Origin: an uncultured Methanomassiliicoccales archaeon
Lineage (GTDB): Archaea; Thermoplasmatota; Thermoplasmata; Methanomassiliicoccales; UBA472
Direction: 5' to 3'
Assembly: GCA_963695345.1 (NCBI GenBank)
Contig: OY968769.1
Span: 896,001 to 960,000, forward strand
Length of the DNA stretch: 64,000 nucleotides
In this document: piece by piece, positions 17,438 to 42,433 of the stretch
Layout: every line of letters starts with the position of its first letter
Position numbering within the stretch: position 1 is the first letter of the stretch
Notes under the pieces: model-generated
The model's database searches: none
What the model saw: only the letters and a program-made list of their open reading frames with translations
Told to the model about the DNA's origin: nothing
Made by a program: the position numbers and the translations under genes

Positions 17438-18607
17438 ATGGAATTCTGGAGCAGGGTGCCCGGAAACGGGGATGACAGGACAACGGTTCGAAGGAAGGTC
17501 ATTTCGACAACGGTCATCACCGTGGCGATGGTGATCATGGCCACCGGAGCGTTCTTGGCATTGAGCCCTCCGGGCAGCAGGACCGACCTGTGGTTCCTTT
17601 TTCCGGCGGTATGCGCCATGTCGGCGTGCTACCTTGTCCTGGGGCTGGTCGGAGCCCTGGTAAGGGGAACGATGGCCAGCCTGTTGCGTACCGGCATCCA
17701 ATTCCTGAGCTTGGCATTGTTGATTGGATTGCTGTCGATCTTCCTCCCCAACGGACCGAAGGGCATGCTGGGATTCGGATTGCTCTTGATACTCACAGGT
17801 TTTGCGACGATGGCTGCGTACATCGCCAAGGGATTCTCCGATCACTATTGGCTGGCCGGCAGAGCGGCGGCGCTCATGCTGCTGGGCATTACGCTCGAAT
17901 CAGGGTTGGGGATGACGGGGGCAGCGGACCTGCTGTCCGGGATTCCCCTGATGGTGATGCTCGCGGTAGGTTTGCTTTCCCTATTCGGCATCGTGCACCA
18001 GCACAGTAACATATATGTGCGTTCGGTCGGACAGTTTTTCCGCAGCGCGTCGAACATGATCGCCCTGACGGTGGTCTTGACGCTGGTCCTCGTATACGCG
18101 TTCAGGCTCAGGGGCGCCATCGCCGACCAGGCCCCGGAACAGACCCTACTGGGGGAATGGATCGTTTTGGCCATAGTGGTGATCGTGGTAGTGTTCAAGT
18201 TCTTCTCGTTCTTCCGCTCCAAGGAGAAGAAGCAGGACTTCCTCGACACCCGCCGTTTGGTGCAATCGATCTACCAGAACCGGGGAGACACCATATATGC
18301 CCAGAGAGTGGTGGACCAGTTCATTGTGGAAGGGAGGAGGGAACCGCTCGTGGTCCTGCTGGCGACCGTGCTGCTGCAGGGCCGGGCTGACCCCAACCAG
18401 ATCGAGAGGATCATAGAGGGCGTGGTGAGCTACGCACCCAAGGAGCAGAGGCATACCTTCAGGTGGGCTTTTGGCAATGAAGAGGCCATGACCAGGGAGG
18501 AGAGGACCAGGATCGCCTTCGAGGCACTGGACCGGGCGGCACAAGCGCTGGGGGCTGGCTATCTCATGTCCAGTGCCCCCAACCAGACGGGGATCGCGGA
18601 GGGATAG
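17438..18607 (+). CDS. polytopic membrane protein
   Basis: About 8 hydrophobic helices plus a soluble C-terminal domain; tightly linked within the MoxR operon. Confidence 0.75.
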   Translation: MEFWSRVPGNGDDRTTVRRKVISTTVITVAMVIMATGAFLALSPPGSRTDLWFLFPAVCAMSACYLVLGLVGALVRGTMASLLRTGIQFLSLALLIGLLSIFLPNGPKGMLGFGLLLILTGFATMAAYIAKGFSDHYWLAGRAAALMLLGITLESGLGMTGAADLLSGIPLMVMLAVGLLSLFGIVHQHSNIYVRSVGQFFRSASNMIALTVVLTLVLVYAFRLRGAIADQAPEQTLLGEWIVLAIVVIVVVFKFFSFFRSKEKKQDFLDTRRLVQSIYQNRGDTIYAQRVVDQFIVEGRREPLVVLLATVLLQGRADPNQIERIIEGVVSYAPKEQRHTFRWAFGNEEAMTREERTRIAFEALDRAAQALGAGYLMSSAPNQTGIAEG

Positions 18608-18608
18608 A

Positions 18609-19583
18609 ATGGATATTACGGAATTCAGACAGTGTTCCAGGAACATAATCGATTCGACCGGCGGGGTCTTCGTGGGCGATGAGCTTGTGCTCAGGAAGCT
18701 CCTATGCGCGGCATTGGCCAACGGACACGTCCTGTTCGAGGACAAGCCCGGCCTGGGAAAGACCCTGCTGGCCAAGGTCTTCGCCAAGGTCACCGGGTGT
18801 AATTGGGGACGGGTCCAGTTCACCCCGGACCTGATGCCCATGGATATCCTGGGCACTAGGATATGGAGGGCGAGGACCTCGGAGTTCGTACTTGAGAAGG
18901 GACCGGTGTTCACCAATATCCTGCTGGCGGATGAGATCAATCGTTCCCCGCCGAAGACCCAGTCAGCCCTTCTGGAGGCCATGGAGGAAAGGCAGGTGAC
19001 CATCGAGGGAACCACCCACCGGCTCACCAAACCATTCTTCGTCATCGCCACCCAGAACCCCATCGAACAGGAGGGGACCTTCCCGCTGCCGGAGGCGCAG
19101 ATGGACCGGTTCCTGCTCAAGATGGCCACCGGCTATGTGAGGACGACCCAGCTGGAGAGCGAGATCCTAAGGCGCAGGATCCGCTGGCAGGCAGATGACC
19201 CGGTGGACCGCCTGGTATCCGCCATGGACCAGGCCACTTTCGTGGACATGCAGGATCTGGTCGAGAAAGGCGTCTACGCCGATGACCAGATCCTGGACTA
19301 CGTGAGCACCATGGTCCGGGCCACCAGGGAACATGAGGCGGTGGAGGTGGGGGCATCCCCCCGGGGCTCGCTTTCTCTGTTGAAGGTCTCCCGGGCCCAT
19401 GCGGCGATGATGGGACGGGACTTCGTCACCCCTGACGATGTCAAGCTCTTTGTCCGCGATGCGTTGTGCCACCGTATCATCATGAAGATGGAATACGAGA
19501 TCGATAACCGGGTCACGCCTCAGTCGGTGGTCGATGCGATAGTGGCGCAGACCCCGGTCCCGAAGGACTTTGGCCGGAAGTGA
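18609..19583 (+). CDS. MoxR-family AAA+ ATPase
   Basis: GHVLFEDKPGLGKT, RVQFTPDLMPMDI, LLADEINRSPPKTQSALLEAMEE, ATQNPIEQEGTFPLPEAQMDRF and GASPR. Confidence 0.95.
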   Translation: MDITEFRQCSRNIIDSTGGVFVGDELVLRKLLCAALANGHVLFEDKPGLGKTLLAKVFAKVTGCNWGRVQFTPDLMPMDILGTRIWRARTSEFVLEKGPVFTNILLADEINRSPPKTQSALLEAMEERQVTIEGTTHRLTKPFFVIATQNPIEQEGTFPLPEAQMDRFLLKMATGYVRTTQLESEILRRRIRWQADDPVDRLVSAMDQATFVDMQDLVEKGVYADDQILDYVSTMVRATREHEAVEVGASPRGSLSLLKVSRAHAAMMGRDFVTPDDVKLFVRDALCHRIIMKMEYEIDNRVTPQSVVDAIVAQTPVPKDFGRK

Positions 19584-20877
19584 ATCGATGCTTCCCCGGA
19601 TCTCGGCCGAGTTCAAGACCTTCGCCTTGCTTCTGGTGGTAGGGATACTTCTAGGCAACGTGCTGATCGTGCTGCTATCGCTCGTGCCGATGTTGTTCGT
19701 GGTCCTGTCCATGCTCTATCAGGCCCCGACCCGGATGAGCGTTTACCGCCCTGCTCCCCAACTGAACGCATACGTCAATGAGAACGTGACGGTCACCTCT
19801 GAGCTTTCCGTCATGGACGGCGTCGGGATAGTGACGGTGGGAGACTCGCTGCCTGCCCATTTCCGCCTCGCCGAGGGCAACAATTTCCGGGTGTATTGGA
19901 AATCCGGGGCGCCTCTGCAGGTCCGGATGCAGTATGGACTGGAATGCACGAAGCGGGGGGTGTACACCATCGGCAACTCGATGATCGAATCGATCGACCT
20001 CGCCGGACTGGAGGAGAACGAGGTCGTCCCCGGCCTTGACCCAGTGGAACTGCTGGTGCAGCAGCGCCCGATGGACATGCGCAAGATGAGGGACCCGAGG
20101 CTCCTTACCCGGATACTAATGCCCCCGGGGGCGGTCAGCAAGCTCGGGTCCACGACCACCGATTTCAAGGAGATCAGGGAATACCGCAATGGCGATCCGT
20201 TCCGCCACATCAATTGGAAGGCGAGCGTGAGGAATTCCGACCTGGATATCAGCAATCCCCTGGTAAACGAATATGAAAAGGAGGGACAGCAGGTGGTGTG
20301 GATCTTCCTCGATGCCTCGGAACGGATGGCCGTCGGTTCCAGCGTGGAGAATGCGTTCGAGCACGGAATCAGGGCGGCCAACGGCCTGTCCCAATTCTAT
20401 CTGGCCAGGAACTGCCGGGTGGGGCTGAAGGCGTTCAATTCCGGCCGTCTCATCCTGCCGGACGTGGGAAGAAGGCAAAGGGCCATGATATCAAAGATGC
20501 TGGTCAGCGTGGAGATGACCAGGTTGAAGGGAAAGATGAAGGAGGACGTGCGGGCCTGCCGGGGACACCTGGTCGGGTCCAGCCCCCTGTTCATCGTGAT
20601 CACCATGGTCAGGAATGAGAACCTGGATGAGCTGAGGGCGGGCATCCGCGAGATGCGTCTGTACTCCGGACCCCGGTCCAAGGTCCTGGTGCTGCATGTC
20701 GATGGCAACGGATTAATACCGACCAATCTGGGGGAAGAGGCCGCCGCCATGGCGACCGATCTGCTGTCGCTTTCCGCGGTCCGATCACTGGCCGGACCTG
20801 GGACCACCGTTGTTCCCTGGAATCCGCGGAGACAGAGCCTGAACGAGCTCATGCTCAAGAACCTGAGGAGGAGATGA
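19570..20877 (+). CDS. DUF58 (vWA-like) domain protein
   Basis: N-terminal TM pair, KRGVY, DFKEIREYRNGDPFRHINWKAS and IFLDASERM. Confidence 0.9.
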   Translation: MAGSESMLPRISAEFKTFALLLVVGILLGNVLIVLLSLVPMLFVVLSMLYQAPTRMSVYRPAPQLNAYVNENVTVTSELSVMDGVGIVTVGDSLPAHFRLAEGNNFRVYWKSGAPLQVRMQYGLECTKRGVYTIGNSMIESIDLAGLEENEVVPGLDPVELLVQQRPMDMRKMRDPRLLTRILMPPGAVSKLGSTTTDFKEIREYRNGDPFRHINWKASVRNSDLDISNPLVNEYEKEGQQVVWIFLDASERMAVGSSVENAFEHGIRAANGLSQFYLARNCRVGLKAFNSGRLILPDVGRRQRAMISKMLVSVEMTRLKGKMKEDVRACRGHLVGSSPLFIVITMVRNENLDELRAGIREMRLYSGPRSKVLVLHVDGNGLIPTNLGEEAAAMATDLLSLSAVRSLAGPGTTVVPWNPRRQSLNELMLKNLRRR

Positions 20878-20878
20878 G

Positions 20879-21601
20879 ATGATGGATCAGCCCCCAGTGG
20901 ATCGCCCGCATCCCATGCCCCGGGCGGTGACCACCCTGGTGGTCGTGATGGCCTTCGTGATGAGCGTCATTACGCTGATGAACTACCGGTTCTATGCCGA
21001 CATACGGTCTGCCGCGTCCCGGTTCTTCCAGGTGCTGGGCGCGGGTTTCGATACCGACATCATCCTGATCGGCCTGATGTTCGTCGCTGTTCTCGTCGGG
21101 GTCGTGAGCGAGAAGAGGCTCCGATCGACCCTGAGGTCCGGATGGATGCTGCTCATTCCGGCGATACTATTCTATTCCAAGATCGATTGGATGTACCTGA
21201 TGGGCTTGCCTGTCGACTTCAGCCTTTTCCACAATGACCTTCCTCAGGTCTACATACTCCTGAACGGTGTGGCGTTGTTCTGCGCCAGCCTGTTGTTCCG
21301 TTCCCACCTGCATCTGTCATGGATCAGGAAGACCCTGGCCGGTCGGGGGGCTTCAAAAGAGGACCTGGATAAAGCCGTGCAGGGCAATTTCATCTTCCTG
21401 GTAGTTCTGGTTGCCCTGTCGGCCGGGGCCGCGGCCCTTATCGGTGCGGCGGTCGGATTGATCATTCCCGCTCTAAGTGTGGCCAGCGGTGCCTTGGGCT
21501 ACGCGTATCTGGTGATCGGCCTGGTCGCCAACGCGGCCATCGTGGCAGTTTTCGGCCTCTACATATGGAAGAGCAAGAGGACGTCCCCGAACCGGGAATG
21601 A
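20879..21601 (+). CDS. membrane protein (about 6 TM)
   Basis: Hydrophobic profile; last gene of the MoxR operon. Confidence 0.75.
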   Translation: MMDQPPVDRPHPMPRAVTTLVVVMAFVMSVITLMNYRFYADIRSAASRFFQVLGAGFDTDIILIGLMFVAVLVGVVSEKRLRSTLRSGWMLLIPAILFYSKIDWMYLMGLPVDFSLFHNDLPQVYILLNGVALFCASLLFRSHLHLSWIRKTLAGRGASKEDLDKAVQGNFIFLVVLVALSAGAAALIGAAVGLIIPALSVASGALGYAYLVIGLVANAAIVAVFGLYIWKSKRTSPNRE

Positions 21602-21806
21602 GCGGCACACCAGGCAGGTCCGGTCGCCTCTATGGAGGACCGATTTCTATTCCCGTCTTTATTGACAGCCCATGGCGACTAGTAAGATAGGTATCGTAAG
21701 AGAAGCCGCCCCCTTGATTTGCCCACTGTCATGGAACGAATAATCGTAGACTGCTATCATTATCTGTTCAAAGGTTTTTATACATCGGGTTAAACTATTT
21801 TCAAAC

Positions 21807-22610
21807 ATGACCGCCTCCAAAAAGGAGCTGAGAGTGTTCACCGCCTCGCAGGAAGCCTTGTGGATAAATTCGACCCTCATATGCGGGGAGCGCGACGCAA
21901 TACTCATTGACGCCCAATTCACCCTCAGCGACGCCAGAAAGCTTGTCACTATGATCAAGGAAAGCGGCAAGAATCTGAGCATGGTCTACATCACCCACCA
22001 TCATCCTGACCATTATTTCGGCCTTCAGGAGATCGTTAATGCCTTTCCCGATGCCCAGATCCTTGCCCAACCCACCACCGTGGAGAGCATCAAGAAGACC
22101 TGGAAGGGCAAGGTCGAGCAATGGGCCCCGGTATACGGGAACAACATCACCACCGCCCCGGTCATACCCAAACCGATGAGCGGAATGGTGCTGGAACTCG
22201 AGGGGGACATGTTCCCCATCTACATGAACGCCCAGGGAGATGACCATGGTAACTCCTACGTGTGGATACCTTCGCTCAACGCCGTCATCTGTGGAGACAT
22301 CGTGTACAATGGTGTCTATCCCTGGACGGCCGATACCACACCGGCGGACAGAAAGGAATGGATAAGGACGCTGGAAAAGATCGAATCGCTCAACCCATCA
22401 ATGGCAGTGGCGGGGCACAAGGACCCTGCCAAGACCGATGACCCTTCCTGCATCCGATTCATGAAGGAATATCTGAGATACTTCGATGCGGCGATCATCA
22501 CGTCGAAGACCGCGGATGAGCTGAAGGCTACTGTGAAGAAGAAATTCACCGGGCTCGGCCTGGAGGTCATACTGAACATCTCTTCAGGAGTGGCTTTCCC
22601 ATCGAAGTGA
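21807..22610 (+). CDS. MBL-fold metallo-hydrolase
   Basis: ILIDAQF, THHHPDHYFG (HxHxDH), GDIVY and VAGH; TATA-like TTTTATA upstream. Confidence 0.88.
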   Translation: MTASKKELRVFTASQEALWINSTLICGERDAILIDAQFTLSDARKLVTMIKESGKNLSMVYITHHHPDHYFGLQEIVNAFPDAQILAQPTTVESIKKTWKGKVEQWAPVYGNNITTAPVIPKPMSGMVLELEGDMFPIYMNAQGDDHGNSYVWIPSLNAVICGDIVYNGVYPWTADTTPADRKEWIRTLEKIESLNPSMAVAGHKDPAKTDDPSCIRFMKEYLRYFDAAIITSKTADELKATVKKKFTGLGLEVILNISSGVAFPSK

Positions 22611-22878
22611 GGCAGGAGACATTCCTTCCGATAAGGTCAAGCATCGACGATGGGCTCGCCGCCTTCCAAGCGAATGGTGACTCGTGAAGTCACGGGACCT
22701 GTCATTGTCACCACTGTTCCCGATTTCCGAAGGCCCTTCAGTTCTAAAGTAGTGTTTCTCCGATGCGTGGTTGGTCCTCCCAGGCGCTAGCGGTTATCGA
22801 CTGCGTCGGTGGCAGTGGACCGATTAAGGGAAATGTAATAAACGGAGTCCGCATTGGCAGGCATCGTCGGAGCATAAC

Positions 22879-23838
22879 ATGGCAAGCCTTCATGTCAAAC
22901 TATTGGCGGTCGGATTGGTCGCTATACTCATCGTCGCCTCTGTCTACATCGTCGTGTCTCCCAAGGAACAGAGTGCTGACAAGATCCGGATCGGGGTCCT
23001 CCCGGTCATCGATACACTACCTCTGTATGCAGCCCTGGAAAGGGGATCGTTCCAACAGGCCGGACTGAATGTCGAGCTGGTCCAGTTCGGGAGCGCACTG
23101 GAAAGGGATTCGGCCATGGTGGCTGGCTCGATAGACGGCTATTTCGGAGACATGGTGAACACGATCCTCCTGAAATCATCCGGTCAGGACGTGAAGGTTA
23201 TGACCATCGATTACCACACGAACCCCCAGGCTCGCATGTTCGGTCTGCTCGCTTCCCCTGCCAACAACGTTTCAGATATCAATTCCACGATCGGAATGTC
23301 GGTGGCCACCTCCTCAGCGACGGTCACCGAGTACGTTCTCGACAATATCCTGGCGGAGAACAATATGACCGGAAAGATCAGCAAGACGGAGGTCAAGGCG
23401 ATCCCGATCCGTTACCAGTCATTGATGCAGAACAACGTCCAACTCGCGATATTGCCCGAACCCTATGCCACCCAGGCGATCCAGGGAGGGGCCCACTTGG
23501 TGGCGGACGACAGGACGATCAATATCACAGCCACCGTGATCGGCATGAAGGCAGGATTCATAACCAGCCACATCGATGATCTGAAGAAGCTGCTCAAGGC
23601 GTACAACGACACCGTCCAAGCGATAAACCAAGACCCGACCCAATACTATGATGTCTTGGAAAAGGACATCGGATTCCCGAAGGCGCTGGAAGGCAACTTC
23701 ACCTTCCCAGTCCTGAGCAGCACCTCGCTCCCGTCACCGCAAGAATTCCAGAAGGTGCTGGATTGGATGACCGCAAAGGGAATCGTCCAAAGTCCGGTCG
23801 CGTATGATGCCATAGTCGCCGAAGAGCTATACCCGTGA
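22879..23838 (+). CDS. ABC transporter substrate-binding protein, NitT/TauT (SsuA/NMT1-like) family, N-terminally anchored
   Basis: TM anchor then IRIGVLPVIDTLPLYAALERG...GLNVELVQF...AGSIDG and LPEPYAT. Confidence 0.87.
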   Translation: MASLHVKLLAVGLVAILIVASVYIVVSPKEQSADKIRIGVLPVIDTLPLYAALERGSFQQAGLNVELVQFGSALERDSAMVAGSIDGYFGDMVNTILLKSSGQDVKVMTIDYHTNPQARMFGLLASPANNVSDINSTIGMSVATSSATVTEYVLDNILAENNMTGKISKTEVKAIPIRYQSLMQNNVQLAILPEPYATQAIQGGAHLVADDRTINITATVIGMKAGFITSHIDDLKKLLKAYNDTVQAINQDPTQYYDVLEKDIGFPKALEGNFTFPVLSSTSLPSPQEFQKVLDWMTAKGIVQSPVAYDAIVAEELYP

Positions 23839-23842
23839 GCGC

Positions 23843-24577
23843 ATGATAAACGTCGAGCATCTGTCCAAGTCATATGAAGGAGGTTTCCAGGTCATCGATG
23901 ACCTGAACTTCGCAGTGGAAAAGGGCAGGTCCTTGGCGATAATCGGGCCTTCTGGGTGTGGCAAGACCACCCTCCTCTATATCCTGGCGGGGCTCACCCG
24001 GAGGTCTGCCGGCACAGTTACCGTGGAGGGAAGGTCGGTGGACGGTCCCTCGACGGAGGTCTCGTTCATCCTCCAGGATTTCGGCCTCCTGCCTTGGAAG
24101 ACGGTCCTTGAGAATGTCTGTCTGGGCATGAAGCTTCGCGGTACTCCGCCGGAAGATCGGGAGAAAAAGGCTGACGTACTGCTAGAGGAACTTGGCCTGA
24201 AGTTGCACCAGGACCACTATCCGGCTAGGCTGAGCGGAGGAGAGCGGCAAAGGGTTGCGATCGGCCGGGCACTTGCCACGGAACCGAAACTGCTCCTGAT
24301 GGATGAACCGTTCTCTTCGTTGGACACGCTGACCAGGGAGCGGATGCAGGAAATGCTCCTGGAGATAAGGAAGAGGAACGGACTGACGATGGTGGTGGTC
24401 ACCCACAGCATAGAGGAGGCGGCATTCCTGGGAGATTCCATCCTGGTCCTCGGCGGGCGCCCGTGCACCGTCCGGGCTATCCTGCAGAACCCGGGCGCTG
24501 GTACGCCAGGACACCGTGGCACTGATTCCTATTTCTCCACCTGCAAGGCCGTGAGGAAGGCGGTGGAGGGAATATGA
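23843..24577 (+). CDS. ABC transporter ATP-binding protein (SsuB/TauB-like)
   Basis: GPSGCGKTT, LLPWKTV, LSGGERQRV, LLMDEPFSSLD and VTHS. Confidence 0.95.
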   Translation: MINVEHLSKSYEGGFQVIDDLNFAVEKGRSLAIIGPSGCGKTTLLYILAGLTRRSAGTVTVEGRSVDGPSTEVSFILQDFGLLPWKTVLENVCLGMKLRGTPPEDREKKADVLLEELGLKLHQDHYPARLSGGERQRVAIGRALATEPKLLLMDEPFSSLDTLTRERMQEMLLEIRKRNGLTMVVVTHSIEEAAFLGDSILVLGGRPCTVRAILQNPGAGTPGHRGTDSYFSTCKAVRKAVEGI

Positions 24578-26208
24578 ACAAGCAAAGGGCGTTCGGCTAC
24601 CTACTATCGTTGGCAGTTGGCCTGATGGCCTGGAAACTGGCATCGCTCCTGGTCTCATCGCCGATACTCCCCAGCCCCGAGACCACCTTCCAGGCATTCA
24701 TAGACACCGCTCAGACCGCTCTGTTCTGGTCCAATTTCGGTATCAGTGCCTATCGGGTCATCGTCGCCATCGCCCTCGCCTGGTGCTTGGCATTTCCCCT
24801 GGGCATCTTCATCGGCTATAGCCAGAAGATGGACCGCTACTTCAGTCCGCTGATCTTCCTGACCTACCCGATCCCCAAGATGGTGTTCCTGCCGGTTCTA
24901 TTCGTGTTCTTCGGCATTGGCGATACCACCAAGATACTCCTGATCACGCTCATCGTTTTCTTCCAGATACTGGTGGCGACAAAGGAAGGTGTGAGCGCCA
25001 TCGACCGCAAGTATATCGATTCGATGCGGTCCATGAACGCCACGAACAAGGACATCTTGAAAGAGGCGATCATACCGGCTGCGCTTCCGAGCAGCTTCAC
25101 CTCCCTCAGGATCGTCACCGGGACCGCCATCTCGGTGCTCTTTTTCGCCGAGGCCTTCGCGGGATCGACCGGACTGGGATACTTTATCTATAACGCATGG
25201 GGGCTCCTTCAGTATACCCAGATATTCGTGGGCATCATCGCCATGAGCATCCTGGGATTGGCTTTGTATGAGATCTTCACCTTCATGGAACGAAGACTTT
25301 GCAGGTGGAAGGAGGTCCCGGAGGGGACTGAGGACGTCACGGACGATCGGTCCGCACTGATGAAGATAACCGCCTATGCGCAGATGATCAAACTGAGCCA
25401 TAGCGTGTTCGCGGTACCCTTCGGATTGGCGGCATTGGTGCTGCTGGCCAAGGACAATGAAATCACCTTCGGGATGGTCTTCTGGATAGTCCTGGCGATC
25501 ATAGGGGCGAGGTCGGCGGCGATGGGCTTCAACCGGGTGGTGGATGCGAAAATTGACGCCAAGAACCCCCGGACCAATATGAGGCACATTCCGTCGGGGA
25601 CGCTCACGATGCGGGAGGGATCGTTCTTCGTCATGGTGTCTGCCGCGGTGTTCGTCATGTCCGCCGCCATGCTGTCTCCCTTATGCTTCTGGCTATCCTT
25701 CCCCGTGCTGGGAATAGTGATGGGATATTCATATGCCAAGCGGTTCACTGCCGCAAGCCACCTGATCCTGGGGATCTCCATCGGCCTGATGCCCCTGGGG
25801 GCCAGCGTGGCCGTGACCGGGACCATTCCCCTGGGGATACTCGTGCTCGGCCTGGCCCTGACCACATACATCGCCGGCTTCGACATACTCTACTCCTGTC
25901 TGGACATCGATTTCGATAAGAAAGAAGGCCTGTGGTCGTTGCCCTCCAGGCATGGCGTCATGAACGCCCTGGTGATCTCGTCGGCCCTCCACGTTGTCAG
26001 TCTGGCGGCCCTGGCGGCATTGTTCTGGATATATACTTTGGGAGCGGTCTTCCTGATCGGGGTAGCGGTGATCGGGGCGATGTTCGTATTGGAACATATG
26101 CTGGTCCGTCCGGCCGACCTGTCCAAGGTGAACGTGGCGTTCTTCAACGTCAACGCCGTGATATCGATCCTGGTGTTCGCATCCGTCCTGTTGGGAGTGT
26201 ACGCATGA
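24574..26208 (+). CDS. fusion of SsuC/TauC-like ABC permease (aa 1 to about 247) and UbiA/MqnP-like aromatic prenyltransferase (aa 263-544)
   Basis: Permease motifs ILPSP, PIPKMVFLP, IIPAALP and GLGYFI, then MIKLSHSVFAVPF, ARSAAMGFNRVVDAKIDAKNPRT, YSYAKRF and GFDILYSCLDIDFD in one reading frame. Confidence 0.85.
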   Translation: MNKQRAFGYLLSLAVGLMAWKLASLLVSSPILPSPETTFQAFIDTAQTALFWSNFGISAYRVIVAIALAWCLAFPLGIFIGYSQKMDRYFSPLIFLTYPIPKMVFLPVLFVFFGIGDTTKILLITLIVFFQILVATKEGVSAIDRKYIDSMRSMNATNKDILKEAIIPAALPSSFTSLRIVTGTAISVLFFAEAFAGSTGLGYFIYNAWGLLQYTQIFVGIIAMSILGLALYEIFTFMERRLCRWKEVPEGTEDVTDDRSALMKITAYAQMIKLSHSVFAVPFGLAALVLLAKDNEITFGMVFWIVLAIIGARSAAMGFNRVVDAKIDAKNPRTNMRHIPSGTLTMREGSFFVMVSAAVFVMSAAMLSPLCFWLSFPVLGIVMGYSYAKRFTAASHLILGISIGLMPLGASVAVTGTIPLGILVLGLALTTYIAGFDILYSCLDIDFDKKEGLWSLPSRHGVMNALVISSALHVVSLAALAALFWIYTLGAVFLIGVAVIGAMFVLEHMLVRPADLSKVNVAFFNVNAVISILVFASVLLGVYA

Positions 26209-26241
26209 TCATGACCGCTCGGAAGCCGCCGTCACAGGGAT

Positions 26242-26961
26242 GTGAATGACTTGGAACTGGACAAGAACCCGCAAAGGATCGAAGGACTGTTCGACGACAT
26301 CACCCCCACGTATGATCGCCTGAACCATCTGATGTCCATGTCCATCGACCGGATATGGAGGGGACAGGCGCTGGACTGCCTCGGGCTCAAGGATGGCGAT
26401 CTCGTCCTGGACATTGCCACCGGAACGGGAGACATGGCGATACAGGCCCTCACCCGGGCGGACTGTTCCCTGGTGGGCATCGACCTCTCCCGGAACATGC
26501 TCGATATTGCGGTCAAGAAATGGCAGAAGAAAGTTCCTGGATCGGCATTCCCAGCCGTCCAGGGCAATGCACTATCGATGCCGTTCAAGGAAGGGACGTT
26601 CGACAAGGCCATGGTCGCTTTCGGCATCAGGAACGTTCCGGATGTCGGGGCTTTCTTGACAGACGTGCACCGGGTGTTGAGACCGGGTGGCCGTTTCGTG
26701 GTGCTCGAGCTGTCCGTGCCAGTTTGCCGGATAACCCGGCCGCTGTTCCTTGTCTATCTGACGCAGATACTGCCGCTCATTGGAAGCATGCAATCCGGAG
26801 ACCTGCCCGCCTACCGCTACCTGAGCGATTCCATACTTGCCTTCCCTACGCCGGATGAGCTGGAGAAAACGATGGTCTCCAAGGGGTTCAAGGTCGTCCG
26901 CTCAATATCACAGACCCAGGGCATCTGCCACCTGTATGTGCTGGAGAAGGAGGGCCAATAA
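26242..26961 (+). CDS. menG: UbiE/MenG-family demethylmenaquinone C-methyltransferase
   Basis: FDDITPTYDRLNHLMS, VLDIATGTGD, FGIRNV, RVLRPGG and AYRYLSDSI. Confidence 0.9.
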   Translation: MNDLELDKNPQRIEGLFDDITPTYDRLNHLMSMSIDRIWRGQALDCLGLKDGDLVLDIATGTGDMAIQALTRADCSLVGIDLSRNMLDIAVKKWQKKVPGSAFPAVQGNALSMPFKEGTFDKAMVAFGIRNVPDVGAFLTDVHRVLRPGGRFVVLELSVPVCRITRPLFLVYLTQILPLIGSMQSGDLPAYRYLSDSILAFPTPDELEKTMVSKGFKVVRSISQTQGICHLYVLEKEGQ

Positions 26962-28769
26962 TGCACTATCGCAACCTGACCGAATTCATTTCCCGCCTGG
27001 AGAGGGAAGGGGAACTGCTCCGTGTGAAGGCCGAGGTGTCGCCTCATCTGGAGATAACGGAAGTTACGGACCTCATGTCCAAGAACCCGAACGGAGGCAA
27101 GGCATTGCTTTTCGAAAAGGTGACTGGCTCGTCGTTCCCGGTGCTAACCAACGCCTTCGGGTCGGAACGGCGGATGGCCATGGCGCTGGGCTGCGATACC
27201 TTGGACGATCTCGAGATGAAGATCGGAGGCCTGCTCGACACCAAGCCGCCTGAGGGATTGGTAGGGAAGCTGGGAATGTTGCCTGAGCTGCTGTCCCTTT
27301 CAAAGGCGTTCCCACGGACCAAGAGGAGCGGCCGAGCCCCCTGCCAGGAGGTTGTGGTCACGGGCGATGCCGTAGACCTTAGCGTGATACCGGTCCTTCA
27401 TTGTTGGCCCAAAGATGGGGGCCGATTCATCACTCTGCCGGTGGTGTTCACCAAAGACGTCGAGGGACATTCGAGGAATGCCGGAATGTACCGCATGCAG
27501 ATATTCGACAAGAACACGACCGGCATGCACTGGCACATCCACAAGGATGGCCGCCACAACTTCAACGGCTACAAGAGGCTGGGGAAGAGGATGCCGGTGG
27601 CGGTGGCCATAGGAACTGACCCATCGATCACCTACGCCGCCACCGCGCCGATGCCGCAGGGGATCGACGAGATGATCCTGGCCGGGTTCATCCGCGGTTC
27701 GCCCGTGGAAATGGTCAAGTGCAAGACGATCGACATGGAAGTCCCAGCGGAATCGGAGTTCGTCCTGGAGGGGTACATCGACCCGGAGGAGAAGCGTGTC
27801 GAAGGACCGTTCGGTGACCACACCGGATACTATTCGCTCCAGGGGGAGTATCCGGTCTTCCATGTCACGGCAATGACCCATCGCCGGAACGCTGTTTACA
27901 GCGCCACGGTAGTGGGGAGGCCTCCGATGGAGGACTGTTATATGGCAAAGGCCACAGAACGTGTGTTCCTACCCCCCCTGAAGAAGATCCTGCCGGAGAT
28001 CCTCGACTACTGGATGCCTTGGGAGGGCGTCTTTCATAACATCGTCGTGGTGGCCATTCAGAAGGAGTACCCCATGCAGGCCCGCAAGGTCATGAGCGCG
28101 TTGTGGGGCAACAACCAGATGAGCTTTGCCAAGATGATCGTGGTGATCGACGATCCAACGCTTCTCCGCAACCCCGCCCAACTCCTGGAACGGATCCAGA
28201 ATAACCTGGACCCAGCCCATGACCTGGTCCTGACCGAGGGAGTCCTGGACGTGCTGGACCATTCTGCCCCCGATGCGTTGTTCGGAGGTAAACTGGGCAT
28301 TGACGCCACGGAGAGGGTGGAAGGTGAGCCCTCCAGGTCGTCTCGGCATGAAGGCCGTCTGACCGATGAGGACATTCGGGCCACGATAAGAGGACTGAAT
28401 ATCCCGGCAGCGTCAAGGTCGGTCGGCCTGAATTCCAGGAACCCGTTGGTGCTGATCGGGGTCAGAAAGGAAGGGGGAAGCTCGAAGCACGTAAAGGAGA
28501 AGTTCAGGCCGATGGCGTCGAGTCTAGGATGCACAATAGTGCTGTACGACGACATCGACCTCAATGACGATTCGCTGGTGCTCTGGAAGGTCTTCAACAA
28601 TGTAGATCCCCGCAGGGACATCGAGCTGGATGGTGACGGGGCGATCGTCGACGCCACCAAGAAGGGACCGGCCGATGGATATAAACGGGAGTGGCCCGAC
28701 GAGATCGAGATGTCAGAGGACGTCAAGGATAGGATACAGCAGAGAAGGAAAGAGTTAGGCCTGGGATGA
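26961..28769 (+). CDS. UbiD-family menaquinone biosynthesis decarboxylase (MqnL-like, long form)
   Basis: WPKDGGRFITLP, RNAGMYRMQ, MHWHIHKDG, EGPFGDHTGYY, VGRPPMED, LDVLDHS, GGKLGIDAT; second C-terminal repeat NNVDPRRD...DATKK. Confidence 0.92.
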   Translation: MHYRNLTEFISRLEREGELLRVKAEVSPHLEITEVTDLMSKNPNGGKALLFEKVTGSSFPVLTNAFGSERRMAMALGCDTLDDLEMKIGGLLDTKPPEGLVGKLGMLPELLSLSKAFPRTKRSGRAPCQEVVVTGDAVDLSVIPVLHCWPKDGGRFITLPVVFTKDVEGHSRNAGMYRMQIFDKNTTGMHWHIHKDGRHNFNGYKRLGKRMPVAVAIGTDPSITYAATAPMPQGIDEMILAGFIRGSPVEMVKCKTIDMEVPAESEFVLEGYIDPEEKRVEGPFGDHTGYYSLQGEYPVFHVTAMTHRRNAVYSATVVGRPPMEDCYMAKATERVFLPPLKKILPEILDYWMPWEGVFHNIVVVAIQKEYPMQARKVMSALWGNNQMSFAKMIVVIDDPTLLRNPAQLLERIQNNLDPAHDLVLTEGVLDVLDHSAPDALFGGKLGIDATERVEGEPSRSSRHEGRLTDEDIRATIRGLNIPAASRSVGLNSRNPLVLIGVRKEGGSSKHVKEKFRPMASSLGCTIVLYDDIDLNDDSLVLWKVFNNVDPRRDIELDGDGAIVDATKKGPADGYKREWPDEIEMSEDVKDRIQQRRKELGLG

Positions 28770-29118
28770 GCCTGCGGCCAATGGTGGCCCAATGGACGGC
28801 CCCTTCTCCTGCCTCGGATCGAGGATCAGAAACCATGTCGTGGATGGCTCTACACTGATCTAGATCGATGCCGCCCTGCTTCTTCTTGCACATGGACGAT
28901 TCATCACGTTGAGGGAACCATTGGCTGACCGGTTTGGACGAGCCAGCAAACGATGGACAGGATATGTTTTGTAAGAAGAGGGCCGATGACCAGCCGTTTC
29001 CTTCCCCTGTTTCTCAACTTCTATCTCCCATTGGGGAGCTGCGTCCGCCCGTTCCATTGCAAACCAATAAATGGCATGGGAAGTGTAGAATTCCTACCTG
29101 TTAAGGAAATTCGGTGGA

Positions 29119-31062
29119 ATGAACATGGACAACGATCTGCCTGATATCGAATCAGTTGAGTGCCTCAGGGTCCCGATCAAGAAGTTCAAGCCCGATGAGA
29201 TCGAGGAAAAGGTCAAGGAACGGGCATTGGACAAATCGACCCAAGATGTCCTGAGAAAGACGATGAAGGAGGGTACCGATACCGTCTGGGACCGGTTCGA
29301 AAGACAGCAACCCCAATGCAAGTTCTGCACCGAAGGGATATCCTGCCAGCGATGTGCCATGGGACCGTGCCGTCTGATGGGCGGCGACCGCACCAGGGGA
29401 GTATGCGGCGCCGATGCCGACCTGATGGTGGCCAGGAACCTTCTGGACACCATGGCGACGGGCGCCGCCTCCCATTCGGACCATGGAAGGGAAGTGGTGG
29501 AGACACTGCTGAAGACCGCCCGGGGCAAAGCACCCGGTTATGCCGTCAAGGATGAGGAGAAGCTGCAAGCATTGTCCACGGAATATGGTCTGCCCGACTC
29601 TGACCCCATCAATGTAAAGGCAGAGAAGCTGGCATTGGCCATGCTGGAGGAGTTCGGGACCATTAAGGGAGAGATGCAGATGCCCAACCGGGCACCTCAG
29701 GCCTGCATCGACCTCTGGAGGGCGGCAGGCATCCTGCCCCGCAGCATAGACCGCGAGGTGGTCGAGGCCATGCACCGGGTCCATATGGGCGTCGGGGCGG
29801 ACTATTCCGGCTTCCTTCTGCAAGGGATGAGGGCTTCGATGGCCGACGGCTGGGGCGGTTCCATGATGGGTACGGAGATATCGGACGTCCTTTTCGGAAC
29901 ACCGACCATAAAGAGCTCGAAGGTCAACCTGGGCGTGCTCAAACACGACCAGGTGAACATATCCCTGCATGGCCACAATCCGATCCTATCGGAAATGATC
30001 GTCAAGGTGGCCAGCATGCCGGAGATGATCGCCCGCGCGAAAGCAGTGGGTGCGAACGGCATCAATCTGGTGGGGCTGTGCTGCACCGGCAACGAACTCC
30101 TGATGCGAAAAGGCATACCCCAGGCCGGTAACCATCTGGACCAGGAAATGGTCATCACCACCGGTGCGCTCGAGGCCATGGTCGTCGACTACCAGTGCAT
30201 CTTCCCCACCCTGGCGAACACCTCCTCCTGCTACCATACGATGCTGTTCACCACCTCTCCCAAGGCGGTCATTCAGGGCAGCTATTTCGTCGAGATAACT
30301 CCGGAGAACGCTTTCGAGCAATCGAAGAAGATAGTCGCCGCCGCCATCGACAACTATCCCAACCGGGTGAAGGAAAGGGTGCTGATACCGGACGCGCCGG
30401 TCGACGCGATGGTGGGGTTCTCGGTCGAGTCCATAAGGAAGGCCTTGGGAGGTAGTCTGAAGCCCTTGCTGGATGCCGTCGTTTCGGGCAAGATCAGAGG
30501 ATGCGCCGGCATCGTTGGCTGCAATAACCCCCGGATCAAGCATGACTACGGCCATGTCACGCTGGCCAAGGAATTGATCAAACGGGACATACTATGTGTG
30601 GAGACAGGTTGCTCGTCCATCGCCTGCGCCAAGGCGGGACTGCTTCAGCCGAGGTCGATCGACCAGGCCGGAAAAGGATTGCAGGAAGTATGCGGTTCAT
30701 TGGGGATTCCGCCGGTCCTGCACATGGGATCCTGCGTCGACAACAGCCGGATCCTGGCACTGGTGGCGGAGTTGGCCAGAACGGCCGGAGTGCGTATCGA
30801 CCAGCTTCCGGTGGTGGGGGCGGCTCCAGAATGGTACTCTCCAAAGGCGGTTGCGATAGGGGCGTATTTCGTGGGCAGCGGAGTCAGCGTCTGTCTCGGG
30901 GTGATGCCCCATATCGGGGGAAGCCATAACGTGATCAAGACGCTGACGGAGGACCTGGACGGATTGGTCCATGCCAAGTTCTGGGTGGAGCCGAGCCCCC
31001 TGAACGCCGCGGCCTTGATGTCAGACCACATCGAGATGAAGAGGAAGGCCCTGGGAATGTGA
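29119..31062 (+). CDS. cooS: anaerobic Ni-dependent carbon monoxide dehydrogenase catalytic subunit
   Basis: CKFC...CQRCAMGPC...GVCGA; HSDHGRE; C-cluster ligands in HGHNP, GLCCTGNE, GCNN, TGCS and GSCVDN; WYSPKA. Confidence 0.93.
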   Translation: MNMDNDLPDIESVECLRVPIKKFKPDEIEEKVKERALDKSTQDVLRKTMKEGTDTVWDRFERQQPQCKFCTEGISCQRCAMGPCRLMGGDRTRGVCGADADLMVARNLLDTMATGAASHSDHGREVVETLLKTARGKAPGYAVKDEEKLQALSTEYGLPDSDPINVKAEKLALAMLEEFGTIKGEMQMPNRAPQACIDLWRAAGILPRSIDREVVEAMHRVHMGVGADYSGFLLQGMRASMADGWGGSMMGTEISDVLFGTPTIKSSKVNLGVLKHDQVNISLHGHNPILSEMIVKVASMPEMIARAKAVGANGINLVGLCCTGNELLMRKGIPQAGNHLDQEMVITTGALEAMVVDYQCIFPTLANTSSCYHTMLFTTSPKAVIQGSYFVEITPENAFEQSKKIVAAAIDNYPNRVKERVLIPDAPVDAMVGFSVESIRKALGGSLKPLLDAVVSGKIRGCAGIVGCNNPRIKHDYGHVTLAKELIKRDILCVETGCSSIACAKAGLLQPRSIDQAGKGLQEVCGSLGIPPVLHMGSCVDNSRILALVAELARTAGVRIDQLPVVGAAPEWYSPKAVAIGAYFVGSGVSVCLGVMPHIGGSHNVIKTLTEDLDGLVHAKFWVEPSPLNAAALMSDHIEMKRKALGM

Positions 31063-31250
31063 AGGGGACCGGGGCGCACCCAAGGAGATTGAGGCCGCTC
31101 CCTGACTATTAGAGACGGAATGATTAGGGAAACCCATGGCGATTATTGACCGGCACGAGTTAACTATTGCTACGACCCAGATGTAAAATCGAGCAATTAT
31201 TGAGGGTTGTTTCGATAATGCTTTGAACAAATGACAACATACGATGTTAC

Positions 31251-31976
31251 ATGACCGATTATGCCGAGAGTTCGAGGAAGATGGTCGAAATTCTTGGATT
31301 GAAATATGAACCCGTAGCGGTAACACTGATCAGGAAGGGACAGCCGCTTCCGGAAGGCATCCCGGAACCGGAGAAGGCCGTTAGGCACTGCCAATCAGTC
31401 ATGAGGGCGAGAAAAGGAGAATGCCTGCTGGTCCCGGCAAGCAAGCATGCGTGTCCGGTAGGGGCATCGGCCCTGGGCCTTGTACCCGTCCCTGAAAAGG
31501 TCGCCTCGGGGCAATTCCATTTCGGGCTGGGAATGTACGAGAATGAAGCGGCGGCGAAGCACACCATGGATGTCAGGCCGACGTTCGATGAGAATAGCCT
31601 GGACGCAACCCTTGTGTGCCCGTTGAGCAAGGCCACAAGCCCTCCCGACGTCATAATAGTCACGGGCACCCCGGAACAGCTGTACTGGCTTATTCCCGCC
31701 GCCTCGACCTATGATAAAGGAGGAAGAATCACGATCGAAATGGCGTCATTCCAAGCCAGCTGCGTGGATTCCACCATACTTCCGTACAAGACCGGTGTCC
31801 CTCACCTATCTCTCGGCTGTTATGGATGCAGGAAGAGCACGGACATCGCTCCAGAAGAGATGTTATTGGGATTCAAGGCAGACACCCTCGAACGGACCGT
31901 GGAAATATTGGAGAAATTGAAGGAAAAGGCGATCCCTTCCTGTCGGGATAGACCGGCGGCCCATCCAGCCAAATAA
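31251..31976 (+). CDS. DUF169 family protein
   Basis: LGLKYEPVAV, HCQ, ACPVGASALG, PDVIIV, ASC and SLGCYGCR pattern. Confidence 0.85.
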   Translation: MTDYAESSRKMVEILGLKYEPVAVTLIRKGQPLPEGIPEPEKAVRHCQSVMRARKGECLLVPASKHACPVGASALGLVPVPEKVASGQFHFGLGMYENEAAAKHTMDVRPTFDENSLDATLVCPLSKATSPPDVIIVTGTPEQLYWLIPAASTYDKGGRITIEMASFQASCVDSTILPYKTGVPHLSLGCYGCRKSTDIAPEEMLLGFKADTLERTVEILEKLKEKAIPSCRDRPAAHPAK

Positions 31977-32093
31977 GGACTCTGGCAATCCAATCCCGTC
32001 TGAACGGCATTCGATCCGACGAAGGGTATGGCGTTGCTGAACGCGACGAAAACTCTGCCGTCACGCCCTTCGGGGCGAACACCGACCATCTCA

Positions 32094-34031
32094 CTACTCG
32101 GGACGCCGCCATCCGCCTGCTGGAACCGTTATCTCGAAACGCGCTCCCCGTCCTGGCTGACCGCATTCCCGGATGGTGGTATCGGTTATGGCGAGCACTT
32201 CCCGGATCAGGAACAGACCCAGGCCGGTGTTCTTTCCGTGCCCCTTCTTGAAGATCAGTTCCTTGTCCTCAGCGGCGATGCCCACCCCGTTGTCCTCATA
32301 GATTATCTTCATGGCGTCGCCAACCTGCTCGGCGCTCATCTTTACCCGGTTCACATGTTCCCCATGCCGCATGGAGTTATCGATGAGGTTGTAGGGGACC
32401 TTCATGGCCAATGGGTCGATCAGGATCTGCACGCCTCCGGTGTGCTCCTCGAAAGCCACTCCCTTCAGGTGAAGCTGGACAAAAGCCTCGGCGGTCTGTC
32501 GGCCGATCGGTACCCAGGTTGGCGATTGGCTTCCTATGTCCTGATAGTCCCTGGTAAAGGCGATCTGTTGCTGCACGTTCGTGGCCGCCCGGGACATTTT
32601 CTCCAGATACGCGATCATCTCGGGATCCTTTTCCCTGAGCTTGAACAGGGTCATGTATCCGGTAAGCACCTGCATCTGATTGAGAATGTCATGCCTGGTG
32701 ATGCTGTTCAGCATACCCAGCTTGAGACTGGCCTGTCTGAGCGCCTCTTCCGCCCGCTTGCGTTCGGTGATGTCCTGGGCGCTGGTTCGGAAACCGATCG
32801 AATGGCCGTTGGAGTCCATGATAGGCCTCCATGAGATAGAGATCCAGAATTTCGAGCCGTCCTTGCGCAGCGCCCTGACCTCCAGGCTGTCCCCGCTCCC
32901 GCCTTCTATCGCCTTTCGCATCTTGTCGAACACCTTTGGGTGGTCCTCTTCGACAATCGCCATGTCCGTGTAGTTCTGAGCGGTGATGAATTCCTCAGGA
33001 GTGTATCCAGTCAAGGCGATCGAATAACTGTTCATCCACAATAGTCTGCCCTGAGGATCGAACCAGGCTTCCCAGCTGGCAGCATAGTTGGCGATGGCTT
33101 TGAACTTCTCCTCGCTGGCCTTGAGGGCATCCTCTGCCTTCTTGCGGTCCGTGATGTCCGTAATGATAACGGTGAACTGCATGGGGGCGTTGCCGTAGAC
33201 CGAAACCTCGAAATGCCGGTCCAGCGCCTGGGAGTAGCTCTCGAAGTGGTCCGGAACTCCGGTCAGGACCACCCTGCCGTATCTCTCGATCCATGTCGGC
33301 TCGACCGTTTTCAGGGTCTCCATCACAGTCTTACCCACAACGTCGGACCGTTTCAAACCGGTCATGCTTTCGAACTCTGCGTTAATCTCGATGAAACGAT
33401 AGTCGATCGGGATCCCGGCCTCGTCACAGATGATCTCGTGGACCGCCGCCCCGTTGATCATACCCTCGAACAGACTGCGATACCTCAACTCGCTTCCACG
33501 CAGTTGTTCCTCCGCGGCCGCCCTTGCCTCATTCCCGGCCTGAATCTTCTCCAGCTGCTTGCTCATTTCCAATTTTGCCGCAGCCAGTTCCTTGTTCGCC
33601 CGCAACAGCTTGCGGTTCCGCTGCTCCACTTCCTTATCCGCCTGCCGTTTCCGAACAGCCATCCGAAGACGGTGCTCGAGCTCTACGTACATCGGAGCGG
33701 GCATTCCGCCCTTCTGAAGGTAGGAATCCGCCCCATTGTTCAGGGCCTCTATGACCACCTCTTCCCTTCCCTTTCCCGTAAAGAGTATGAATGGTGTCTG
33801 GTCGCCGGATGCCCGCAATGATTTCAAGAATTGGATGCCGTCTTCGATGGGCATCTGATAATCGGAGACAATGGCGTCATATTTCTGGCCCAGCAATGCC
33901 TCCCGGGCCTTGGCCACGGAGGTTACGTTGTCGACCTGTATCTCCCCGGATATCTCAAGGAACTCCTTGCACAAGGAACCTAGGTCTGGCTCATCATCGA
34001 CCGCCAGTACCCGAATGCGAGGAGAGGACAT
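32094..34031 (-). CDS. hybrid receiver-PAS-PAS-histidine kinase
   Basis: N-terminal REC (VDDE, SDYQMP, FTGKG, YLQKG), two PAS/PAC domains, H-box RHDILN, NLIDNSMRHG, DNGVGI and GLGLFL. Confidence 0.92.
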   Translation of the reverse strand: MSSPRIRVLAVDDEPDLGSLCKEFLEISGEIQVDNVTSVAKAREALLGQKYDAIVSDYQMPIEDGIQFLKSLRASGDQTPFILFTGKGREEVVIEALNNGADSYLQKGGMPAPMYVELEHRLRMAVRKRQADKEVEQRNRKLLRANKELAAAKLEMSKQLEKIQAGNEARAAAEEQLRGSELRYRSLFEGMINGAAVHEIICDEAGIPIDYRFIEINAEFESMTGLKRSDVVGKTVMETLKTVEPTWIERYGRVVLTGVPDHFESYSQALDRHFEVSVYGNAPMQFTVIITDITDRKKAEDALKASEEKFKAIANYAASWEAWFDPQGRLLWMNSYSIALTGYTPEEFITAQNYTDMAIVEEDHPKVFDKMRKAIEGGSGDSLEVRALRKDGSKFWISISWRPIMDSNGHSIGFRTSAQDITERKRAEEALRQASLKLGMLNSITRHDILNQMQVLTGYMTLFKLREKDPEMIAYLEKMSRAATNVQQQIAFTRDYQDIGSQSPTWVPIGRQTAEAFVQLHLKGVAFEEHTGGVQILIDPLAMKVPYNLIDNSMRHGEHVNRVKMSAEQVGDAMKIIYEDNGVGIAAEDKELIFKKGHGKNTGLGLFLIREVLAITDTTIRECGQPGRGARFEITVPAGGWRRPE

Positions 34032-42432: not shown

Positions 42433-42433
42433 A

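Follow-up and report, generated by a model that had tools for sequence, protein, structure and literature searches.

Can the importer of a biosynthetic precursor and the membrane enzyme that uses this precursor be one and the same protein? The question is raised by an open reading frame (ORF) of 544 residues found in a stretch of 64,000 nucleotides (hereafter, the window) of an uncultured Methanomassiliicoccales archaeon (GenBank assembly GCA_963695345.1, contig OY968769.1, positions 896,001 to 960,000 of the forward strand). In this ORF, the permease of an ATP-binding cassette (ABC) importer runs in frame into a prenyltransferase of the UbiA family. We found that the fusion is real, that it recurs in other archaea and in bacteria, and that it lies in a cassette with enzymes of late menaquinone synthesis. 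The analysis suggests that the carrier takes the quinone ring from outside instead of making it, and we consider it on balance probable that the cassette is a self-contained salvage module, which would take up its head group as a soluble aromatic acid, probably a dihydroxynaphthoate, prenylate it at the membrane, then decarboxylate and methylate it to menaquinone.

The ORF Encodes a Genuine Fusion

The first-pass annotation, made from the sequence alone, described a permease ending at ERRLCRWK (residues 239-246), an acidic linker and a complete UbiA domain starting at Met263 (an ATG codon at nucleotide 25360), and all these features were borne out, together with the position of the ORF (Table 1). 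Pfam recognised the permease domain (BPD_transp_1, PF00528) on residues 74-242 (E-value 1.6e-20, 74 bits for a cut-off of 26.4) and the UbiA domain (PF01040) on residues 281-527 (1.5e-47, 162 bits for a cut-off of 34.2). The linker, EVPEGTEDVTDDRSAL (residues 247-262), has codons that mostly end in G or C (13 of 16), as had been noted. In 62 aligned fusion proteins, both Asp-rich motifs of the UbiA domain were intact and invariant (N320, R321, D324 and D328 for the first, D437, D444 and D448 for the second), and so was the C243-x-W245 motif closing the permease half. The spacing between this CxW motif and the Y/FxxMIK motif was 16-27 residues in the 58 of these 62 proteins that were matched by the pattern.

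The same annotation warned that a single indel in the linker could have joined a permease gene ending near CRWK to a UbiA gene starting at Met263. The stop/start look-alike on which this warning rested, TGATG at 25358-25362 with its TGA out of frame, is indeed present. Two stand-alone permeases (P0158 and P0194) stop 4-6 residues past the same CRW motif, and the completeness of the window's genome, 85% despite its being a single contig (93-99% for five congeners), fits some frameshift errors elsewhere in this genome. The comparison with other genomes nevertheless led us to reject the indel explanation, which we consider extremely improbable. Among 41 related genomes searched, those of five congeneric species (83-89% identity) also contained the fused frame intact, and a further one contained a fragment at a contig end; one species of the genus had no fusion. 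In the codon alignment of the six congeners, the linker differs by one whole codon (a 3-nt indel) and by many substitutions, the frame being kept throughout. The junction codon is ATG only in the window's genome and ACG, AAG or AGG in the five others, so that a separate UbiA gene could not begin there. Fusion matches were present in 16 of 261 Methanomassiliicoccales genomes (14 full length, 2 partial), none with internal stops, and the frame was also intact in four metagenome loci.

Sequencing data pointed in the same direction. A 1736-nt Logan contig from run X1 (depth 7.4), which is another strain or sample and was independently assembled, spans positions 24547-26281 with about 99% identity (15 substitutions) and covers the whole ORF without indel, its sole length difference being one A inserted behind 26222, after the fusion stop codon. 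The contigs of runs X2, X3 and X5 were short pieces, none of which bridged the linker. We conclude that the 544-residue ORF is a real fusion and not an indel artefact. A 788-residue open frame in one congener (G002) was considered as a triple fusion and rejected, the ATPase being there read in another frame.

Distribution and Phylogeny of the Fusion Family

In a collection of 5.8 billion proteins, 616 proteins were retained at E ≤ 1e-5 among 8000 candidates scored, and the best 120 clusters were examined. Both Pfam domains were present in 119 of them, at 49-91% identity to the fusion, the exception being a fragment of 333 residues, which further argues against the indel explanation and answers the question, asked with the first-pass annotation, of whether this architecture exists in independent genomes. 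The source names among these 120 included Methanomassiliicoccales, Methanomassiliicoccus sp., Thermodesulfobacteriota, Spirochaetota, and Syntrophorhabdaceae. When representatives clustered at 50% identity were searched, a single full-length member of the family was left (P0122, 49% identity), together with one fragment; the remaining matches listed were mostly stand-alone UbiA proteins of about 290 residues (at most 49% identity) or permeases of about 250 residues (42-46%), and a few were UbiA domains joined to a different partner. Among the latter, P0129, P0185, and P0195 are single-cluster fusions of close MqnP-like UbiA domains, as yet candidates only, with a Na+/H+ exchanger (722 residues), an amidohydrolase (713 residues), and a UbiE-like methyltransferase (721 residues) as partners.

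We know of no characterised protein in which the permease of an importer and a biosynthetic membrane enzyme form one chain, and found none in the literature searched. The open full text searched also held no description of the fusion architecture, in line with the remark made at first sight that it was not a characterised one, and no paper on a quinone pathway in Methanomassiliicoccales. The main text of a survey of gene fusions and fissions in Archaea mentions neither UbiA nor prenyltransferases (PMC11237513).

We then placed 22 fused UbiA halves in a tree with 60 stand-alone representatives (LG+G4 model, short search, starred branches being less trustworthy). All 22 were recovered in a single clade of 24 rows with high support (99 in the Shimodaira-Hasegawa-like approximate likelihood ratio test, SH-aLRT), the stand-alone proteins P0124 and P0125 falling inside or beside it. 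The window's protein and those named Methanomassiliicoccales (six rows together) formed one sub-clade (support 99) among bacterial sub-clades. This widespread family thus appears, from its sequences, to have had one origin. Among 401 sampled genomes of the phylum, the fused form was present only in two Methanomassiliicoccales, and the other sampled Thermoplasmatota only had unfused UbiA relatives with at most 42% identity, compared with 50-57% for the bacterial fusions. We read this as a probable transfer of the cassette between archaea and bacteria, which could have run in either direction. Within the order, the fusion was found in none of the 174 genomes of family f7.

Fold and Predicted Topology of the Two Halves

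Both halves were well folded in an AlphaFold model of the fusion based on 62 family members (mean predicted local distance difference test, pLDDT, of 88; predicted template modelling score, pTM, of 0.60), and linker residues 249-258 fell below a pLDDT of 50. The best Foldseek matches of the permease half were CmpB (9u9z) and NrtB (8wm8), with template modelling (TM) scores of 0.76-0.80. Its coupling loop (residues 145-172), the loop carrying the 'EAA' motif by which such permeases dock their ATPase, retains D149, S150, S153, P168, L171, and P172, which are invariant or nearly so in the 62 members. This half thus has the domain, the coupling loop, the fold, and the cognate ATPase and binding protein of a type I ABC importer, and is predicted to transport.

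The C-terminal half was closest in structure to ApUbiA of Aeropyrum pernix (4od4/4od5; 32-33% identity, TM 0.85), a stand-alone protein of about 275 residues that shares both Asp-rich motifs and whose physiological substrate is unsettled. The model contains about nine long helices at residues 261-543, that is, the nine-helix fold of UbiA. By its Pfam score, its Asp-rich motifs and this fold, the C-terminal half belongs to the UbiA superfamily, and prenylation is its predicted activity.

Hydropathy and the model agreed on about six then about nine helices along the fusion, with most basic residues at the N-terminus and in the coupling loop, the linker, and both Asp-rich loops. Applying the orientation rule known from the ModB and ApUbiA structures, this pattern places the linker and the active site on the cytoplasmic side of the membrane, so that no extra helix is needed between the halves. 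The predicted topology therefore fits a single chain: the permease would end inside the cell, where the UbiA domain would start and both Asp-rich loops would lie. The permeases of this family are homodimers, as seen in the NrtB and CmpB structures, and the complex should therefore carry two prenyltransferase domains.

It could be argued that the permease half has lost its transport function and only scaffolds the prenyltransferase or anchors it in the membrane. Nothing supports this directly; the conservation of the ATPase-docking loop in 62 sequences and the constant presence of an intact ATPase and binding protein alongside the fusion make it very improbable.

A Conserved Cassette With Quinone Enzymes

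The fusion is the third of five consecutive genes of the same strand, which read as an operon (Table 1), and its start codon overlaps the stop codon of the ATPase gene (ATGA). The Walker and signature motifs of this ATPase are intact, and its best NCBIfam matches were taurine/NitT-type ATPases, all below cut-offs. Downstream, the methyltransferase passed TIGR01934 (219.6 bits for a cut-off of 158.35) and NF001244 (216.8 for 216), and the UbiD protein passed the MqnL equivalog TIGR03701 (mena_SCO4490) with 633 bits for a cut-off of 495.9.

Table 1. Features of the cassette and of the fusion ORF (positions in the window).
Feature	Position	Strand	Length	Description
Substrate-binding protein of the importer	22879..23838	+	319 aa	Pfam NMT1_2 4.1e-14, NMT1 8e-14
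ABC ATPase	23843..24577	+	244 aa	Pfam ABC_tran 1.5e-33
Fusion ORF, ABC permease::UbiA	24574..26208	+	544 aa	
Permease half	24574..25311	+		Residues 1-246; type I ABC importer membrane domain, NitT/TauT kind; ~6 membrane helices
Linker	25312..25359	+		Residues 247-262; acidic, variable, predicted disordered
UbiA-family prenyltransferase half, MqnP-like	25360..26208	+		Residues 263-544 plus stop; ~9 membrane helices
UbiE/MenG C-methyltransferase	26242..26961	+	239 aa	Pfam Ubie_methyltran 1.7e-55
UbiD-family decarboxylase, MqnL (SCO4490) type	26961..28769	+	602 aa	TIGR03701

This gene order was well conserved. The binding protein and then the ATPase precede the fusion in all 13 fused loci reaching upstream, and the complete order, with UbiE and UbiD downstream, was kept in the 10 same-genus loci reaching both sides (10/10). 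Among the 12 fused loci reaching downstream, MenG/UbiE and MqnL followed in 11, and UbiX and UbiD in one bacterial locus. The four fused metagenome loci all have the binding protein, the ATPase and the fusion; one (L022) ends within the fusion, and in the two bacterial loci L025 and L026 the fusion is followed by UbiX-UbiE-UbiD and UbiX-UbiD, respectively. Judging from their flanks (DciA; MotA/MotB and a sigma-70 factor), these two loci are bacterial, and nothing else related to quinones is encoded in these flanks. The proposal of the first-pass annotation that the fusion ties a transporter to quinone synthesis is thus supported by a conserved cassette with MenG/UbiE and MqnL/UbiD and, in the two bacterial loci, UbiX.

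The unfused relatives gave a complementary picture. The closest unfused UbiA homologues, examined in 76 loci, are adjoined by UbiX, UbiD or UbiE in 59, which indicates that the UbiA half belongs to a clade working with these enzymes. No binding protein or permease was found beside any of the 76, of which 46 have at least 1 kb of upstream sequence, and a distant ATPase-like match occurred in three. The transporter was therefore linked to this UbiA clade only in the fused form, considering the 80 metagenome loci and the genomes examined, a set to which the contexts of P0124 and P0125 do not belong. On a 1.3-kb metagenome contig (L100:909-1307), one ORF following an unfused UbiA matched both UbiE-like and ATPase-like families, a double match that could be due to chance or to a chimeric contig.

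The binding protein has an N-terminal membrane anchor and a type II periplasmic-binding fold of the NMT1/SsuA kind (AlphaFold2 pLDDT of 87.5, first helix at residues 2-26). It is membrane-anchored in archaea, and lipoprotein-like signal sequences are found in the bacterial loci; in both cases the protein should face outward. By sequence, it scored 69.8 bits with the SsuA_fam model TIGR01728 (cut-off 163.5), had a single weak match in the PDB (3qsl, of no assigned function), and matched only generic NMT1-family clusters in the ESM Atlas. Its nearest folds by Foldseek, at 13-20% identity, were SsuA, TauA, ThiY and other binders of thiamin and hydroxymethylpyrimidine (HMP), and PqqT. This fold family includes binders of sulfonate, nitrate, thiamin, HMP, and pyrroloquinoline quinone (PQQ, an aromatic tricarboxylate), making an aromatic acid a plausible ligand without indicating any particular one.

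The importer resembles the NitT/TauT systems (SsuABC, TauABC, NrtBCD, CmpBCD) in its permease and binding-protein folds and in its taurine-type-like ATPase; it differs from them by the enzyme domain, which their permeases lack. The scores with the sulfonate, taurine and nitrate equivalogs of NCBIfam were far below cut-offs, suggesting that the substrate of the cassette is a different one. One can nonetheless imagine that the cargo (a sulfonate, nitrate or a cofactor precursor) is unrelated to the prenyl acceptor, the fusion fixing stoichiometry or co-localisation and the ring being made inside by an unknown route. The nearest binding-protein and permease structures do handle sulfonates, taurine, nitrate, and bicarbonate, and family searches leave room for naphthoquinone-ring routes of an unknown kind. 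The link between transporter and prenyltransferase is, however, maintained at about 50% identity between archaea and several bacterial phyla, the three transporter parts are always accompanied by UbiX, UbiD or UbiE, and no such transporter adjoins any of the 76 unfused relatives. A link conserved across domains is hard to explain without a shared substrate. Since the same fold family also binds aromatic acids and heterocycles (PqqT with PQQ; the thiamin and HMP binders), we consider an unrelated cargo distinctly unlikely.

The cassette is an accessory element. A single congener (G005) lacks it: there, the window segments 17438-22582 and 29113-34012 are collinear on one contig, and about 4.6 kb stand in place of the 5.9-kb cassette. 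The replacement (L106, G005:C3:60000-65200, syntenic with window 22610-29119) encodes a Rieske [2Fe-2S] protein, a ferredoxin-thioredoxin reductase beta-like protein, a radical S-adenosylmethionine (SAM) protein of 355 residues, and a different UbiA-family protein of 419 residues scoring only 57.7 bits; it is curious to find a second prenyltransferase at the exact site of the quinone cassette. The gene of the metallo-beta-lactamase (MBL) fold located upstream (21807-22610) was considered as a member of the module and rejected, because it lies at least 1.5 kb from the cassette in other congeners, is absent from the bacterial loci, and is retained in G005.

Quinone Pathway Genes in Methanomassiliicoccales

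We searched the genomes of the order for the other enzymes of menaquinone synthesis. MqnL exceeded its cut-off in 15 of the 261 genomes, which are exactly the fusion carriers with sequence downstream; in each of these 15 it is on the same contig, just downstream of the fusion, and the contig of the sixteenth carrier (G001) ends inside the fusion. UbiX is encoded in the window's own genome away from the cassette. As to the early steps, MqnA/MqnD (PF02621) exceeded the cut-off in none of the 261 genomes, and MqnC was not found in the window's own genome (25 bits for a cut-off of 428). MenB at E ≤ 1e-40 was found in none of the 8 genomes of the carrier genus, including that of the window, nor in the 24 of family f6, and exceeded its cut-off in one genome only, a non-carrier. 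Judging from these family searches, the archaeal carriers appear to be equipped for all the late steps of the futalosine route and to lack each known way of making the ring. The economical explanation for this combination would be that the ring is imported, with the fused importer as the obvious candidate.

Three further proteins of these genomes deserve mention. A UbiD-family gene in a family f7 genome without fusion (G078:C279:1171-2469) scored 251 bits with the MqnL model, short of the cut-off, and probably represents another paralogue of UbiD. Outside the window, contig C1 of the window's own genome (G000) encodes an ORF of 560 residues with a weak UbiA domain (L016:1423-3102; 56 bits, no NCBIfam match at E ≤ 1e-10) and a UbiA-family paralogue of 311 residues (L015:1408-2340), whose best NCBIfam matches were MenA models with scores far under the cut-offs (91 bits for 277; 49 for 102 with TIGR00751).

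A Candidate Salvage Module for Menaquinone Precursors

Predictions for the late steps of the futalosine pathway are given in sections of Ravcheev and Thiele (2016; PMC4746308), with MqnP (UbiA-like), MqnL (UbiD-like), and MqnM (UbiX-like), whose genes are described there as occurring only in genomes with the Mqn pathway. The cassette has the same enzyme families, with MenG, in the same kind of cluster, and its UbiD passes the MqnL model. It departs from this pathway in three respects: its MqnP-like domain is fused to an ABC permease with a binding protein and an ATPase ahead, MqnA, MqnC, and MqnD were not found in the window's genome, and the UbiA half falls below the three MqnP models. In common with MqnP, this half co-occurs with MqnL, and UbiX (MqnM) adjoins it in the bacterial loci L025 and L026 and is encoded elsewhere in the window's own genome.

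Passages of two earlier studies (PMC4746308, PMC5738691) propose that 1,4-dihydroxy-2-naphthoate is taken up from outside by organisms whose genomes have menA and menG alone, and more generally that microbes with the late steps only must import soluble ring precursors, no transporter being known; the former says of such importers that they "remain to be annotated". The carriers of the cassette resemble these genomes in that the late membrane steps are kept, the soluble early steps lost, and the ring precursor would come from neighbours. Unlike them, with their MenA and no known transporter, the cassette has an MqnP-like prenyltransferase and a separate decarboxylase, and it is joined to a candidate importer. 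As the fusion itself ties the transporter to the prenyltransferase, the cassette is a concrete candidate for the missing transporter of menaquinone precursors.

We propose that the module comprises the anchored binding protein, the ATPase, the permease::UbiA fusion, MenG/UbiE, MqnL (UbiD), and a UbiX encoded elsewhere. The binding protein would capture a soluble aromatic carboxylic acid outside the cell, most likely 1,4-dihydroxy-6-naphthoate or another dihydroxynaphthoate, and the ABC system would import it. The fused prenyltransferase would add the polyprenyl chain as the ring leaves the channel, trapping the ring in the membrane; MqnL, using prenyl-FMN (prenylated flavin mononucleotide) from UbiX, would then remove the carboxyl group and MenG would methylate the ring to give menaquinone. 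The need for a separate decarboxylase would imply a carboxylated ring that keeps its carboxyl through prenylation, which favours 1,4-dihydroxy-6-naphthoate. The sequences show the fusion and its conservation, the intact motifs, the constant cassette, the strict co-occurrence with MqnL, and, in the archaeal carriers, the absence of MqnA/MqnD and MenB; the identity of the ligand, the coupling or channelling between transport and prenylation, the final product, and the use of the quinone are inferred.

A similar trapping idea is known from group translocation by the phosphotransferase system (PTS) and from vectorial acylation by FadL/FadD, in which the imported solute is modified on entry, making uptake irreversible. 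These systems involve other protein families and another chemistry, and coupling in the fusion is put forward here as a hypothesis, as is the channelling of imported substrate to the prenyltransferase suggested in the first-pass annotation. In its most extended and rather doubtful form, our proposal is that the fusion is an importer of soluble menaquinone precursors working by "vectorial prenylation", a dimer with two prenyltransferase domains whose cassette moved as a unit between anaerobic bacteria and large-genome Methanomassiliicoccales, giving these methanogens, otherwise regarded as having no membrane-soluble electron carrier, a neighbour-dependent menaquinone, perhaps a partner of their Fpo-like complex. 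If vectorial prenylation did occur, a redox-labile ring would be lipidated on leaving the channel, uptake and commitment to the membrane being one step. An architecture of this kind would lend itself well to the study of how transport and chemistry are coupled.

Several observations weigh against the salvage reading, or against parts of it. Concerning the fusion itself, a pTM of 0.60 with a disordered linker means that no interface between the two domains is confidently predicted. Concerning the ligand, none was named by the PDB, ESM Atlas and Foldseek comparisons, in which identity to solved structures did not exceed 20%. Concerning the pathway, the early-step negatives cover MqnA, MqnC, MqnD, and MenB, MqnE and the other Men enzymes not having been searched, and they cover the archaeal carriers only, not the bacterial carriers genome-wide; the 85% completeness of the window's genome also bears on its own negatives, though five congeners reach 93-99%. 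The weak MenA-like paralogue mentioned above is a caveat on which prenyltransferase uses which ring.

The models matched by the UbiA half raise a more specific difficulty. This half passed TIGR01475 (ubiA_other, 265 bits for a cut-off of 180.8), and none of the 23 NCBIfam families matched at E ≤ 0.001 was a MenA model. It failed the three NCBIfam MqnP models (NF041584, 235.9 bits for 420; NF041586, 228.4 for 430; NF041585, 227.9 for 375), and its best match, PRK12886 ("prenyltransferase"), was also below its cut-off. With PRK12888 ("4-hydroxybenzoate octaprenyltransferase"), it scored 274 bits, above the scores of the MqnP models. The cassette could thus be a true salvage module for 4-hydroxybenzoate or another aromatic acid, or one with a product other than menaquinone, such as a prenylated phenol or another lipid-soluble cofactor. 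That the best solved relative, ApUbiA, was solved with substrate bound, and that none of the three families of quinone users tested was found (see below), would also agree with this. On the other hand, the proteobacterial UbiA model TIGR01474 gave only 98.5 bits (cut-off 275.45), the adjacent decarboxylase clearly passes the MqnL equivalog, and clusters of the UbiA-UbiX-UbiD and UbiA-UbiE types are where the closest unfused homologues are encoded (the 59 of 76 loci mentioned above). A ubiquinone-type route from 4-hydroxybenzoate moreover needs ring hydroxylases and an O-methyltransferase, both absent from the cassette. Altogether, we regard another acid or another product as unlikely, although it is the foremost competitor of menaquinone salvage.

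The use of menaquinone by the host is the other difficulty. The organism of the window is a methanogen (mcrA is present), and neither cytochrome bd, NrfD nor NarI/HdrE was found in a search for these three families in its 85% complete genome. The redox potential of menaquinone is too high for it to reduce the heterodisulfide, and we know of no established membrane electron acceptor of the Fpo-like complex. According to passages of a survey of 243 Methanomassiliicoccales genomes (PMC10804542), the order has no HdrE, and the proposal is that its Fpo-like complex interacts with HdrD itself and needs no intermediate carrier. Were the salvage confirmed, a quinone taken up by seventh-order methanogens of soil and sediment lineages, and by none in family f7 (no fusion in 174 genomes), would have consequences for the energy metabolism of these archaea and for how far they rely on other microbes. 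What is new here is the combination of known parts in one fusion and one cassette; the salvage mechanism is a well-motivated proposal.

Other Genes of the Window

Directly downstream of the cassette (29119-31976), we observed a gene of the prismane/CO-dehydrogenase family (647 residues) and a DUF169 gene; the former keeps its position in G005 despite the missing cassette. Genes of the heterodisulfide-reductase type are located 13 kb downstream of the cassette (41878-43576), with an MvhD/FlpD-like gene followed by that of an HdrD-like protein (two CCG domains, 4Fe-4S clusters). Between these two regions, three consecutive genes of KaiC-family ATPases (240, 516, and 238 residues) are encoded on the minus strand (37833-40936).

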